From Octopus vulgaris (lineage: Eukaryota): 64,000 nucleotides of DNA. The stretch's first letter is position 1, and each line of letters starts with the position of its first letter. This document shows positions 460 through 30,345 of the stretch, piece after piece. The position numbers and the translations under genes are program-made. The notes below the pieces were generated by a model, which was not told the DNA's origin, ran no database searches, and saw nothing but the letters and a program-made list of their open reading frames with translations. Where the stretch lies: assembly GCA_951406725.2 (NCBI GenBank), contig OX597822.1, forward strand, positions 68,882,001-68,946,000, given 5' to 3'.

Positions 460-538
<79 letters not shown>

Positions 539-1060
539 CATATTCCTCTTTCTCTTACTATATATTAATTTAACTATCTATCACTTTATATTTATCTCTG
601 TCACCTGTTTTTGCTATATCACAACTCGAAGTCTTTTTCTTTTTTTGTCTCACGTTTTCACTCCGTCTTATTGTCTGTGTAATATATTTGTCTTTTTTTC
701 TCTCACTACTTTGGCCTCTATCCTTATCTTTGTGCTATCAGCAACTCTTCCTCTCGTCATACGTTAATCTGTCGCCCTTCTCTCTCTCTATCTCTCTCAC
801 GATCTCGTTTTTTTCGTCTTTCCTCCTCATCCTCTCTTAATCTTTTCTATATCTCACATTATCTCTTTCTCTCTCTTCTTCACCCTCTAACTCTCCCTCG
901 TCTCTCATCCCTTTCTTTCTCACGATCTCACTTATTCATCTTTCCTCCTTCTCTCTTGATCTTTTCTGTATCTCATATCTCTCACCCTCTCTATTTCTAA
1001 CTTTTCCCCCTTCCCTCTTTTTCGTTCTTTTCTCCTCTCTGCCATTTCTTTCATTTAAAT
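1..1060. repeat. Pyrimidine-rich low-complexity tract including (CT)n(TA)n at ~464-532
   Basis: Strong C/T bias on the + strand; ORF 423-767 is a translation of the microsatellite. Confidence 0.9.
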
Positions 1061-2316: not shown

Positions 2317-3000
2317 TTAAGGCAGCACACACAAAAAAAAGCATGTCCGGTCCCATGTAAACTAACTTAAAGAAACGGTATGGTAAAAATCTGCATGGCA
2401 CTGGAATTAAATGTCTTTTAGTGATTTGTTCTGTCCTATATTGTTTTCAAATCATTTCGAGTTCACTTTGAGCCTCTCATCAATCGACTTATTTCCACTT
2501 ACAAATTTGTAACCTTTTGCCAATATGAGAAATCATTATCGTTTCTATAGTGATGACACAGACAGTGGCTATCTTTTTATATGCTTTATAAATAAAATAA
2601 ATAAAAAATAAATATTCTGAGATCTCATCCCAGTGGAGATGTTCACTTCAGCTTTCATTCCTCGGAGGGTTGATTAAATAAGTATCATTCCATTTGTTTT
2701 TCTTTCTTTTTCTTCGCTTTTTCTCTTTTCATAGTCTTTCGTTCTTTATCTTCTTTTTCATTCTCTTTATCTTCTTTTTGTTTTTGACTCACATTCTCTT
2801 CTCTACAGTCCCTCTCTCTCACTCTTCCATTTTATTCTCTCTCCCATGCATACACATCTTGCTTTACACATTCAGAAAATGATATACACATGTCATATTC
2901 AGATAAAGAATCTTGCAAACACGTGGTTTGTAAGATTCTTTATGTAAATTCGTGTGTTGAAATATTTTGTTGAGTCTAGAGAGTTACATACAACAATATA

Positions 3001-12522: not shown

Positions 12523-12523
12523 A

Positions 12524-12583
<60 letters not shown>

Positions 12584-12587
<4 letters not shown>

Positions 12588-13148
12588 GTTGTTCAGAAAG
12601 TTTGTGCTGATTTATAGTAGCTTACCTTTCGACTTATTTTAGAACATGGCTGAGTCCATAAAATAGGATTTGACTACACCTCCATTTAGAGCAGAGTTTA
12701 AGCTATCTTTTCATGGAAGAAGATTTATGCTCCTATAACCTGTGTTAATTCTCTAACCCTTTAAAATGGAAGATAAGAAAGTTCCTTTTTGGCATTTGAT
12801 GCTTTGGGAACCAGACAAAAATTGCTGCAGCTCGGCTGGGATGTGTTACCCCACCTTCCATATTCACCAGATATTGCTCCTTTGGATTTACACTTAATCA
12901 GGTCTCTGCAGAATAGTCTTAATGGTAAAAATTTCAATTCCTTGGATGACATAAAAAGAGACCTTGATGAATTCTTTGCCATGAAACCAGCTCAATTCTG
13001 GGAAGAGGGTATTTTCAAGTTAAAGGAAAGATGGAGATGCATTGTGCAACAAAATGCTTCATATTTGGTTGATTAAAATGATTAAAAATGTAATGGCAAG
13101 TATTTATTTACCTTTTTCTTTCCTTTAAAAATTGACATGACAACCCAA
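12584..13148 (+). mobile_element. Internally deleted mariner transposon
   Basis: TA-flanked TIRs ttgggttgt...acaacccaa; MEDKKV start fused to TRQKLLQLGWDVLPHLPYSPDIAPLDLHLIRSLQNSL...WEEGIFKLKERW (YSPDLAPSD-type motif). Confidence 0.95.
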
Positions 13149-13152
13149 TATA

Positions 13153-13491
13153 TTTCGTTTTGGGATTTGGTTTGCAAGATTCTTTATGTGAGTTTGTGTG
13201 TTGAAGGATATACCGTTGTGTCTGGGGAGAGTCATTCTCTTTTGGTGCCCTGTGGTTTAACACACTCACTGGTGGAGTTTCCACTTATTTCTTTTCTATT
13301 TCTTTTATATTTTTCAAAAATTTTTGTTGCGTCTTGTAACCTTTTCAATAGTTCTGACTCTCAAAACTATTGAAAGGGTTACAGGATGCAGCAAGAATTT
13401 TGGAGGAACAGGGGAAGTGGGGAGAAGTTTTACCGGTGAGTGTGTTGAGTTGTAGGGCATCAGAAGAGAGTGACTCTCCCCAGACACAGCA

Positions 13492-13497
<6 letters not shown>
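13153..13497. mobile_element. Repeat with inverted duplication forming a long hairpin (arms ~13208-13353 and ~13365-13497), probably Penelope-like
   Basis: gtgtctggggagagtca is inverted as tgactctccccagacac; 5' part homologous to 2925-2985; ends in (TA)n. Confidence 0.7.
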
Positions 13498-13536
<39 letters not shown>

Positions 13537-19875: not shown

Positions 19876-20160
19876 TTTTTTTTAAGTGATAAAGTCTAGA
19901 TTTTCTATAGAATTCAGAACCAGCACTGTGTTACAACATTTTGCATACAAATACAGCTATGTGAACAATGTGATTGAAAATAGGAAAAAATTAGTAATGT
20001 GTGTATATGCATATTTCTAGAGTTATTGCTCTTTCATCAGTACCTCATTCAACTCATCATCTTTTCTATCTTCAATCACATTCATATATAAAATGTTATA
20101 GCTTACAGTGCTGGTTTTGAATACTATATAAAATCTATAGTTTATCACTTGAAAAAAAAA
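19876..20160. repeat. Imperfect inverted repeat, ~100-bp arms
   Basis: aagtgataaa...aaccagcactgt...aatgtgattgaa vs ttcaatcacatt...acagtgctggtt...tttatcactt. Confidence 0.85.
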
Positions 20161-21300: not shown

Positions 21301-22259
21301 CAGTGCTGGATTAATCATTCACCAAAACAAGCATGTGCTTAGGGCATCAAGGGAAGAGGTGCACCACAGAAATGGTAAATGGTTTATGACACAAAAGAAA
21401 TCACTTTCAGTTTGCTAAAATATTGAGTTGTCTGGAAAGTTCATGCCGATTTATAGTAGCTTACCTTTCGACTTATTTTAGAACATGATCGAGTCCATAA
21501 AATAGGATTTGACTATACCTCCATTTAGAGTACAGTTTAAGCTGTGTTTTTGTGGAAGAAGGTTTATGTTCCTATATCCTGTGTTAATTCTGTAACCCTT
21601 TAAAATGGAAGATAAGAAAGTTCATTTTTGGCACTTGATGCTTTGGGAACCAGACAAAAATTGCTGCAGCTCGGCTGGGATGTGTTACCCAACCCTCCAT
21701 ATTCACCAGACATTGCTCCTTCGGATTTCCACTTATTCAGGTCTCTGCAGAATAGTCTTAATGGTAAAAATTTCAATTCCTTGAATGACATAAAAAGAGA
21801 CCTTGATGAATTCTTTGTCATGAGAGGGTATTTTCAAGTTAAAGGAAAGATGGAGGTGCATTATGCAACAAAATGGTTCATATTTGGTTGATTAAAAATG
21901 CAATGGCAAGTATTTATTGACCTTTTTCTTTCCTTTAAACATTGGCACAAACTTTCCAGACAACCCGATAATATTCTGAATGCTTTATCTCTACTAGGTA
22001 TAGAAGCAGATATGTTACATAAGTTTAATTTTAAGGATCTGATCAAAGACTTTGCAATTAAAAAAAGTTGGAGAAAACTTTTCAAATATAAAGAGGAAAA
22101 ACATTATTTTCCATCTTACTGTTAGTTTTGTTTTATTTTGAAAAATAAAAATTTATTTTATGGTTTATTATTGTTTATATTTTTAATTACATATAAATGG
22201 GGGGACACACCAAAATCTTTTAAATGTGTAGGCCCTCTATGGGTGTTAATCTGGCCCTG
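21301..22259 (+). mobile_element. hAT MITE family G carrying a mariner insertion
   Basis: Termini cagtgctggattaa / ttaatctggccctg; TSD gcttcaat / gctccaat; ALSLLGIEADMLHKFNFKDLIKDFAIKKSWRK. Confidence 0.9.
21423..21968 (+). mobile_element. Internally deleted mariner, second copy
   Basis: TIRs ttgagttgtctggaaagtt / aactttccagacaacccga, TA TSD; PPYSPDIAPSDFHLFRSLQNSL; same deletion junction as 12584 copy. Confidence 0.95.
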
Positions 22260-28199: not shown

Positions 28200-30345
28200 A
28201 CAGTCTCTGTTCAGAGTTTTACTGGACGGATTTCAGCATTCATCTCTTTTATCCATACATTCGTGGGGGAGCATTTAAGTTTAATGGCCTAGAAGTTCCT
28301 TTAGTCTTGCGAAATTTTGCTTGCTTAAATATTTTGACTGTTACACCATTTTATTTTTTATTCAACCCCCAATCGTAAAACTCACGACTACACCTTCTCG
28401 ATGGTATTATGTGGGCGATTCCAAATTCTTAAGGCAACAAGTGGACTTCCCAATAAAAGAAGTCTCATAGAACTTAGTAATTCACAGTGGAGAGCCAAGT
28501 TGTAACAAAAAAACAAAACAAACTAAAACCATACATGATACCTCTGCATTGATTTCTCAAACATTATTACTCATGCTTTCGTGATGTTTCTCCAGCGACT
28601 GTCATTGATGAATTGATATTATACTATATCAGAATAGTTGTATTTTAGCAAAGTCGATATGATCAATGACTACTAGTGATTAAAGAGCGTCCTCATACTG
28701 CTTTTCAAGCCTTGCGGCAATTGTATCAGTATATCTAGACTTTTATATGGCTTTACGAACGCAGTGATATGTTTACAACGGGCGATGAACCATATCTCGC
28801 AGAATAAACATGAATCCATCTATTCGCCGTTAGACATCATTGCATGCAGTATTTATCAGAAAATTTCTATCATGTGTCAAAGATTTCAATATAGCTAGTT
28901 TCAGTGAAAAAGGCGCTGTGTGTGTGAAAAACAATTACCCTTGATTATTGCATAAAACACCTCAAAATAAACCTGATCCGATAGGTTACTTTCTCTTTAA
29001 TGCTTCAGGATTTCTATTACTAAAACGGAACTTGAAAAAAACAAATCATGCAGTTGATAGTTTCTTAGAGTATATGGGTTGTACATTTTACTGACTAGGT
29101 AAGACCGTTAATGAAATGTACCACGTTTTCCATTCCCCAAGAAGTTGTTACGGCTTTCAAAAATATTAAAATCGATGTACATATGCTTGCATCTTTGCTA
29201 TAGCCAACTCTATCGCGTCTACTGTCGAGATTGACACACCAGACATTGGCCTAGCTCCCGCGGTTAAAGGGCCCCATGTTAAGATCAAAGTACGAGGGTG
29301 ACTCAAAAAGTAATACCATTTTCTTTAGGACAGGTATAATTACCAATACAGGAACATGTATCATACATCAAAATGAAGCTGGTCCTCTGTGGATCACATC
29401 CCTACTTCTCAACATAGTCACCGTTTCTCTCAATAGCAATGTTCCACCATCGAATGAGAGCATGTATCCCTGCCCCGTAAAAATCTGTTGACTGTTCTTT
29501 GAGCCATTTCTTCACTACAGTTTTCACTCCCTCGTCACTGGAATAATGTTTGCCTCTCAAACACTCTGTCATGGAGCCGAAGAGGTGATAGTCTGAAGGC
29601 GCTAAATTATTCCAGGGACAAGGAAGTGAAAACTGTAGTGAAGGAATGGCTCAAAGAACAGTCAACAGAATTTTACGGGGCGGGATAAAAGCTCTCATTC
29701 GAAGGTGGAACATTGCTACTGAGAGAAACGGTGACTATGTTGAGAAGTAGGGATGTGATCCACAGAGAACGAGCTTCATTTTGATGTATGATATATGTTC
29801 CTGTATTGGTAATTGTACCTGTCCTAAACAAAATGGCATTACCTTTTGACTCACCCTCGTACGTAGATAAGTCATCTATTTACTTTGGTTAAGATGTTGA
29901 ACAAGAATTAAACTATGTTAAGTGAAAATTTCAAGAAATAAAGTGTTAATACATTGTACCAGCAAAAGTCCTTGTAAAAATATTACATTGTTGTACCACG
30001 AATGTGCACCAATCTTTGTGGATTGTCTATGATATCTATTGAACACGATGTATCTCAGCTTGGTTTTTCTGAACTGATCAATGATTTCGCGTCGTGTTTG
30101 TCTTTGAAAGTTGACTGGATTATAAAAGTGCTCTTTTATTCATATCTGGAAGTTTTACCCAATGAAATTTGTAATAGACCTAGATAAATTAAACTTGTAT
30201 TTTTAAAGATGTTCCTTACTATAACGAGAAATATTAAACTTCATTCAGATAGAATAAAGTAAAATATAGCTATGAATAAAAGGTGTGTAGATTATGAATT
30301 TTGATTGAAGGGATGGGGCCGCGAAACAAAATGTTGCAGCGGGGG
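28200..30345 (+). pseudogene. Highly decayed hAT-like transposase remnant, interrupted by the mariner foldback element
   Basis: LCGLSMISIEHDVSQLGFSELINDFAS at ~30015-30095 resembles a hAT C-terminus; weaker RFQILK..LIELSNSQWRAK at ~28415-28500; left boundary uncertain. Confidence 0.45.
29293..29859. mobile_element. Mariner-derived foldback MITE built from two inverted 3' ends
   Basis: TA TSD; ~255-bp inverted arms starting cgagggtga; minus strand LAPSDYHLFGSMTECLRGKHYSSDEGVKTVVKKWLKEQSTDFY...NGDYVEK*. Confidence 0.95.

Follow-up and report, generated by a model that had tools for sequence, protein, structure and literature searches.

The systems closest to the locus described here concern A-to-I hyper-editing of repeats in RNA, which, in the parts of the sources available to us, is strongest in octopus, with depletion of an upstream G as the invertebrate hyper-editing motif (PMC5625713), and is also seen in a palindromic frog repeat (PMC9068888). 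A repeat apt to form dsRNA, with upstream G depleted, is likewise what we find in Octopus vulgaris; unlike the RNA-versus-DNA differences treated in the available text of those two reports, however, the G's studied here sit in the genome. Among reverse-transcribed sequences, the avian retroviruses (Rous-associated virus, avian leukosis virus) undergo ADAR-type A-to-G hypermutation of nearly 50% of A's, according to the accessible portion of a later account (PMC12925331, on Hajjar and Linial 1995 and Felder 1994). Both cases would involve an inverted repeat in reverse-transcribed RNA and a large A-to-G share (33% here), whereas ours appears to be a non-viral, germ-line-fixed and amplified host family with probably more than one editing episode. 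APOBEC3 fossils, as far as the consulted part of PMC2873906 goes, share a deaminase signature clustered in genomic retroelement copies, but theirs is G>A from cDNA deamination, with no dsRNA link and with another enzyme and substrate. In the sections of each that were accessible, one review calls a role for ADAR of the kind considered here logical but undetermined (PMC4982230), and the write-back of RNA edits into DNA is presented as debated (PMC10209271). Full-text searches, judged by title and abstract start, gave no paper describing germ-line-fixed ADAR hyper-editing in a retroposon family; most subscription papers lie outside this coverage, and absence is unproven.

The hairpin examined here lies in a window of 64,000 nucleotides (the whole stretch of DNA that was analysed; contig OX597822.1, positions 68,882,001 to 68,946,000), and its features are collected in Table 1. 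We read the family to which it belongs, with a probability of roughly 0.9, as a fossil of RNA editing in DNA, in which an ADAR would have edited adenosines of the stem and a LINE reverse transcriptase likely copied the RNA back. An initial annotation had pointed to two inverted arms around an 11-nt loop and counted 22 of 24 mismatches, in segments chosen for clean alignment, as G-U pairs. That bias holds over the whole arms, although the sub-segment figure was slightly cleaner than the whole: an alignment that scored G-U and A-C alike, and so was neutral to bias, gave 103 Watson-Crick pairs, 28 G-U, 4 A-C and 2 transversions, with G-U forming 28/34 mismatches on the + strand and 28/32 transition mismatches (binomial p=2e-5). 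The loop of 11 nt is the gap between the perfect inner arms, and the minimum free energy (MFE) structure narrows it to 3 nt. RNA folding yielded -198 kcal/mol (z -22.4) for the + strand, with 29 G-U pairs in the MFE structure, versus -138 kcal/mol (z -15.8) for the - strand. Two control palindromes of the window, cited in the same annotation as having mixed mismatches, are indeed mixed (4 G-U and 8 A-C at 29284, there given as 29293; 5 G-U and 6 A-C at 19876).

Table 1. Features of the hairpin and its surroundings, in window positions
Feature	Position	Strand	Basis or remark
Left arm of the Penelope-derived fold-back	13208..13352	+	arm alignment, family alignment
Left arm, G where parent has A	13252, 13254, 13255, 13274, 13275, 13277	+	family alignment
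Left arm, insertion of ~11 nt	near 13305-13316	+	private to window copy
Loop / fold-back point	13353..13363	+	its A's unaltered in 21/21 edited copies
Right arm of the fold-back	13364..13492	+	family alignment
Right arm, G where parent has A	13376, 13384, 13391, 13395, 13402, 13405, 13406, 13411-13413	+	
Right arm, G where parent has A (continued)	13417, 13419, 13420, 13427, 13447, 13449, 13452, 13455, 13463, 13470, 13489	+	
Unpaired Penelope-like tail, ~56 nt	13152..13207	- (element sense = - strand)	internal control
Mariner-like element, internally deleted, with terminal inverted repeats	12584..13150	+	composite module
(TA)n tract	13493..13532	+	end of window copy
A-run and (TA)n tract	12523..12583		start of window copy; 5'-truncated relative to the full composite

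A scan for inverted repeats, covering about 1.0 Mb of partly overlapping DNA taken from around the family rather than a random genome sample, returned 197 with at least 8 transition mismatches, 16 of them at p<0.001; of these outliers, 15 are hairpin copies of the same composite element and one is a microsatellite artefact. Other candidates for G-U-biased hairpins were rejected, L102 and L118 as microsatellite artefacts and L106 as mixed (4 G-U, 4 A-C). No Rfam family exceeded its gathering threshold for the hairpin (the best reached 48.9 bits vs 86, the matches being generic hairpin matches), and a miRNA identity was rejected, all Rfam miRNA matches being sub-threshold.

The repeat from which the hairpin derives has approximately 2,884 candidates in the octopus's own genome (2.8 Gb). 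Among the best 30 loci, 17 are G-U-rich like the window copy, while 13 are near-perfect palindromes that carry A in both arms at those G sites. Genome-wide, exact 18-mer matches number 2,896 for the A form and 15 for the G form, the latter all at composite loci; non-composite copies thus lack the G form, and the family consensus that the annotation had called for carries A rather than G. Both this 2,896-match parent and the outgroup copies carry A, which is therefore the ancestral state; read on the window's + strand, the two arms alike have changed from A to G.

The parent is itself, by its sequence features, a Penelope-like element. In the part of the literature source at hand, such elements combine an inverted pLTR and a tail with 8-10 bp target duplications and a GIY-YIG endonuclease (PMC3846280). 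The parent resembles that description in its inverted arm, its one-sided tail and its GIY-YIG frame. Specifically, 30 loci taken in order from the A-form matches fold back at variable points and bear a tail of about 60 nt on a single arm, and target duplications of roughly 9-12 bp, judged by eye, flank 6/13 solo copies, most of the remaining ones sitting in (TA)n or (ATT)n, where a target duplication is indistinguishable. One long copy carries a GIY-YIG frame (L113:1368-1670(-), PF01541, E 1e-6, 29.3 bits vs a cut-off of 22.6) on the strand complementary to the window's +; the domain is C-terminal and precedes the terminal repeat. A 175-aa frame upstream of it, where a Penelope-clade reverse transcriptase would be expected, has no Pfam match, in a copy that is 5'-truncated. 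Unlike the elements in the consulted part of PMC3846280, the window copy is carried passively by a composite that is read from the other strand, and it bears an A>G cluster. Elsewhere, window positions 2899-2983 hold an older, diverged piece of the same Penelope tail, folded back on itself, and the solo Penelope palindrome of L106/L107 (G000:C1:12.81 Mb), which lies beside a separate GIY-YIG-like frame, has 8 transition mismatches clustered in the purine-rich segment and without strand coherence.

Whole or part of the hairpin is present at 26 composite loci, of which 3 are unedited, 1 (L063) is partly edited and 22 are edited. Majority against majority, 29/88 stem A's have become G, as against 1/88 for T>C (p=4e-9), and the other founder-type stem changes comprise 2 C>T (2/43 stem C's altered), 1 G>A and 1 T>A; the A>G excess on the + strand in both arms that the annotation had predicted is therefore present. 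Counted per copy against the column majority of 16 parents (13 solo and 3 composite), the 23 edited copies have 616 A>G and 41 T>C in the stem, figures that share ancestry and are not independent, while the 16 parents have 34 A>G and 37 T>C, and the window copy alone 27 and 6. The excess ends where the duplex ends. None of 9 A columns is altered in the unpaired tail (p=0.054 alone) and none of 2 in the loop, and A>G and T>C stand at 44 vs 51 in the mariner-like module (28 copies), 75 vs 63 in the Tc1 module, and 52 vs 32 and 29 vs 35 in two LINE parts, a skew nowhere like that of the stem; against 20 free LINE copies, fixed A>G affect 0/194 A's of the LINE module. The expected neighbour preference, with 5' G depleted, was likewise recovered, edited A's numbering 26/59 after A/U vs 3/29 after C/G (p=0.0016), and the two edited A's that now follow a G probably followed an A in the source haplotype, judging from the alignment. 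A one-strand A>G cluster, its confinement to predicted dsRNA and a 5' neighbour bias together make up the signature of ADAR hyper-editing, and all three are found in the stem.

The G's are genomic, being present in DNA contigs from other studies; the annotation had asked for confirmation in raw genomic reads. One contig (X1) matches 13222-13294 with 0 differences and another (X4) matches 13323-13452 with 2 differences, while X2 and X3 also have pieces over the left-arm G's. These contigs stem from four runs, four studies and three species labels; two of the runs are DNA by our guess, the kind of X4 is not on record, and no single piece spans the locus.

The hairpin travels within a composite whose modules follow the order 5' segment, ~50-bp tandem repeat, Tc1-like piece (with a DDE_3 Pfam domain), SINE piece, TIR element (220 bp), mariner-like piece, hairpin, (TA)n(GA)n and LINE 3' end. 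The mariner-like element has no Pfam match, its name being our assumption from a transposase motif. The LINE module, 1.2 kb long, sense on + and ending in (GAT)n, is 83% identical to the C-terminus of an RVT_1 protein and presumably belongs to an RTE-like clade, to judge by its tail and motifs. Such an anatomy recalls the LINE-mobilised composite retroposons and 5' transductions of the SVA type, which unite a tandem repeat, captured repeats and a LINE-compatible 3' end with 5' truncation or inversion and successive masters. The octopus element shares all of these, although its parts are different, its tail is (GAT)n, and its diagnostic subfamily changes are mostly of the editing type, A>G.

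Of 36 loci mapped, 1 is a plain LINE and 35 are composite; 13 of the latter end at (GAT)n, 5 at (TA)n behind the hairpin (the window copy included) and 17 are cut earlier. The LINE 3' piece stands behind the (TA)n(GA)n junction in 21 other copies, and the window copy is without a LINE tail. The 5' ends vary, with an inverted repeat block at the 5' end in 6 copies. Taken together, the sense of the LINE on +, the 13 (GAT)n ends, the varied 5' ends and the 6 inverted blocks argue for an RNA copied in the + direction; both this direction and the RNA step itself are well-supported inferences, and the LINE 3' end is most likely what mobilised the composite RNA. Weighing against this account are the 17 loci cut earlier and the five that stop at (TA)n without a LINE tail. 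None of 20 truncated composite loci resumes within a further 10 kb, and loss of the LINE end in 8/21 composite copies vs 3/20 free LINEs gives p=0.16, with a free-LINE control that favoured well-kept copies. Likewise counting against it, no target-site duplication of the whole composite was evident by eye at 32 loci, where many ends lie in microsatellite. Splicing was not supported as the source of internal jumps in copies, the junctions resembling short microhomologies by eye. In L058, L063, L071, L075, L076 and L077, the 5' tandem repeat runs directly into the interior of the composite, at a point that differs between copies and often shows short microhomology, and L062 has its modules in a rearranged order. 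A 543-aa LINE frame lies open at L113:4371-5999 (-), with RVT_1 and a PHD-like finger before its C-terminus and 83% identity to the composite's LINE module; it is likely a near-intact relative of the presumed mobiliser.

A second A>G cluster occurs in the TIR element, where 6/21 covering copies each carry 10-21 A>G vs 0-3 T>C on the + strand. Columns altered in at least two of the six comprise 21/56 A's and 0/48 T's, again with a 5' preference (19/35 after A/U vs 2/21, p=0.0013). Two free copies of the same TIR subfamily have A at all covered cluster sites (21 and 18), while in a commoner free subfamily six of the A columns hold G, and editing has affected five of these six. Gene conversion from that common subfamily was rejected as the source, given that 12/13 other diagnostic columns keep the composite state. 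ADAR prefers A's at A-C mismatches, and of the A's that would lie opposite a C of an antisense partner 5/6 are edited, vs 16/50 of the others (p=0.024); the cluster thus fits editing at A-C mismatches with such a putative partner, a strand that none of the composite copies retains. In the SINE module, 4 A>G stand among 4 other changes, a mini-cluster that may weakly hint at further editing.

From the parent state and polarity, the confinement to the stem, the neighbour bias, the composite anatomy, the unedited outgroup copies, the second cluster and the genomic G's, we infer an enzyme, an RNA step and a history along the following lines. Penelope would make its inverted arm at insertion, its own RNA being one-armed and not a hairpin, which is presumably why the thousands of solo palindromes are unedited. 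One palindrome would have come under transcription from its opposite strand, at a locus where a 5'-truncated LINE with a (GAT)n end lay downstream. A read-through RNA from this locus would have folded into a duplex of about 135 bp, in which ADAR likely deaminated some one-third of the stem adenosines, and would then likely have been retroposed in trans by the LINE reverse transcriptase into germ-line DNA, with inosine read as G. The initial annotation had proposed that a foldback transcript was hyper-edited and then retrotransposed, which our analysis supports, with the amendment that the edited RNA was likely this read-through transcript, antisense to Penelope, rather than Penelope's own. The edited copy would have turned into a master, its descendants (about 3% non-CpG divergence) inheriting the G's, and at least one later round of editing would have affected the small TIR element, likely while an antisense copy from its abundant family was base-paired to it. 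The window copy would be a 5'-truncated descendant that ends at (TA)n by internal priming or later deletion. Fixation of the edits by retrotransposition, as originally suggested for this locus, thus appears to hold for the subfamily, while the window copy probably received its G's from the master. More broadly, we think it rather likely that ADAR has acted here as a recurrent, heritable germ-line mutagen, with the RNA hyper-edited in several separate rounds, on the hairpin, on the TIR element and perhaps on the SINE, and with a LINE reverse transcriptase entering every round into DNA, where it defines new subfamilies.

The relationships among copies bear on how often the hairpin was edited. 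We built a tree of 28 copies after removing CpG columns and columns of possible edits; inside the late clade it is poorly resolved. All 20 edited copies that it includes form a single clade with a bootstrap of 98, and the unedited copies C3 and L053 fall outside. Eight loci that are short or non-composite (L057-L061, L080-L082), among them three edited ones, do not enter the tree. Divergence of the copies from their majority is 3.2% outside CpG. L056 (G000:C22:3.94 Mb) nests among edited late-clade copies, yet its hairpin is unedited, belongs to another solo subtype and ends like a solo copy; a replacement, by template switch or gene conversion, is a possible reading. A search of the genome, including one with the 5' segment, found no source locus combining late markers and the LINE tail in A form, the 5'-segment search adding three more copies that retain 5' parts only. 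The copy at C3:182.21 Mb was rejected as a late master, given that it is unedited but has neither late markers nor a LINE tail, and is an outgroup. That copy (G000:C3:182216700-182217600; L046:1820-2664, -) has an IS1595/Merlin-type transposase remnant directly upstream of the 50-bp tandem repeat, a place taken in the other full-length copies by a different 5' segment of 530 bp. Also at G000:C3:182.21 Mb, at L035:about 500-960 (-) and 3' of its hairpin, three more unrelated palindromic insertions lie at (TA)n tracts around the unedited hairpin.

Granting that ADAR is the enzyme, the source locus may instead have stayed in A form, each copy being edited afresh at near-deterministic sites and so forming its own independent record of editing. 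Differences in edits between the sister copies L050 and L063 and between L075 and L079, and at site 13470 within three sister pairs, agree with such a history, as do second-cluster patterns that overlap without nesting, the absence of that cluster from further members of the late clade, and an excess of private A>G (37/902 vs 23/1,418, p=4e-4), which shows no 5' bias. L063 in particular has four rare markers in common with the fully edited L050, yet lacks four common edits and has some edits of its own, for which a single founder gives no simple account. Back-mutation or local conversion can nevertheless explain most of these exceptions, and the genome search yielded no copy in A form that has both late markers and the LINE tail. 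Further, site frequencies are bimodal, some 28 sites being changed in 80-100% of copies and most of the rest in 0-10%, and two UA sites that should favour editing, 13259 and 13454, have escaped it in 20/20 and 19/19 copies. Bimodality favours inheritance from an edited master, and the G's common to the 23-copy subfamily were, on these sequence patterns, probably inherited rather than made at the insertion of the window copy. We accordingly hold fresh editing of every copy to be a tentative and rather unlikely account, and consider inheritance from a founder, followed by later rounds of editing, the probable one.

Explanations that dispense with ADAR editing of RNA fare worse. Hypermutation of A>G in DNA itself, by polymerase eta at WA motifs in gap filling or by a deaminase on single-stranded or hybrid DNA, would agree with the neighbour bias, polymerase eta too having a WA preference, and with the many copies that have no LINE tail or target duplication; in the portion of PMC12925331 available, ADARs are also reported to edit DNA in RNA:DNA hybrids in vitro. 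We nonetheless regard it as improbable, since one-third of the A's are altered with almost nothing else, on one strand, in both arms and in the stem only, with none in the tail, the loop or the adjoining mariner, and since editing of the first cDNA strand made from a + RNA would appear as T>C. Selection for RNA structure, with G-U pairs tolerated and A-C mismatches not, was raised in the annotation together with strand-specific C-to-T deamination and would account for the + strand folding much better than the - strand. Such selection should also have admitted C>T, which yields G-U equally and is commoner in the flanking modules, whereas 29 A>G stand against 2 C>T in the founder; later pair-breaking changes (41 T>C, 28 G>A) are, moreover, as common as pair-keeping ones (40 C>T). 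Polarity and spectrum thus lead us to reject both suggestions, selection being very improbable. Least credible of all is that the polarity is reversed, with G ancestral and G>A/C>T changes as by APOBEC, that the arms come from two subfamilies, or that the assembly was polished with RNA reads. APOBEC G>A clusters are known in retroelements (PMC2873906, in the part consulted), but the A form is the state of the 2,896-match parent and of the outgroup, both arms are altered, and the G form recurs at 23 loci that bear private mutations, as well as in contigs of DNA from other studies.

If the family is a fossil of RNA editing, it offers a polarised natural case, in which parent and outgroups are unedited, one subfamily is edited, and unpaired segments serve as internal controls. 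It would imply ADAR activity in cells giving rise to the germ line and a LINE reverse transcriptase that tolerates dense inosine, and it cautions that a genomic G at an edit-prone site can stem from past editing. Strand-coherent A>G clusters provide the basis for a simple genome-wide scan and, should ADAR have been a recurrent mutagen, the genome would be a readable fossil record, findable genome-wide, of ancient germ-line ADAR activity and its site preference.

Two further features of the window concern mariner-like sequences. A second copy of the 570-bp mariner-like element, 89% identical to that of the composite and without a hairpin, lies at 21420-21978, and the palindrome at 29284-29868, with 280-bp arms, resembles a fold-back of a mariner-like terminal piece.
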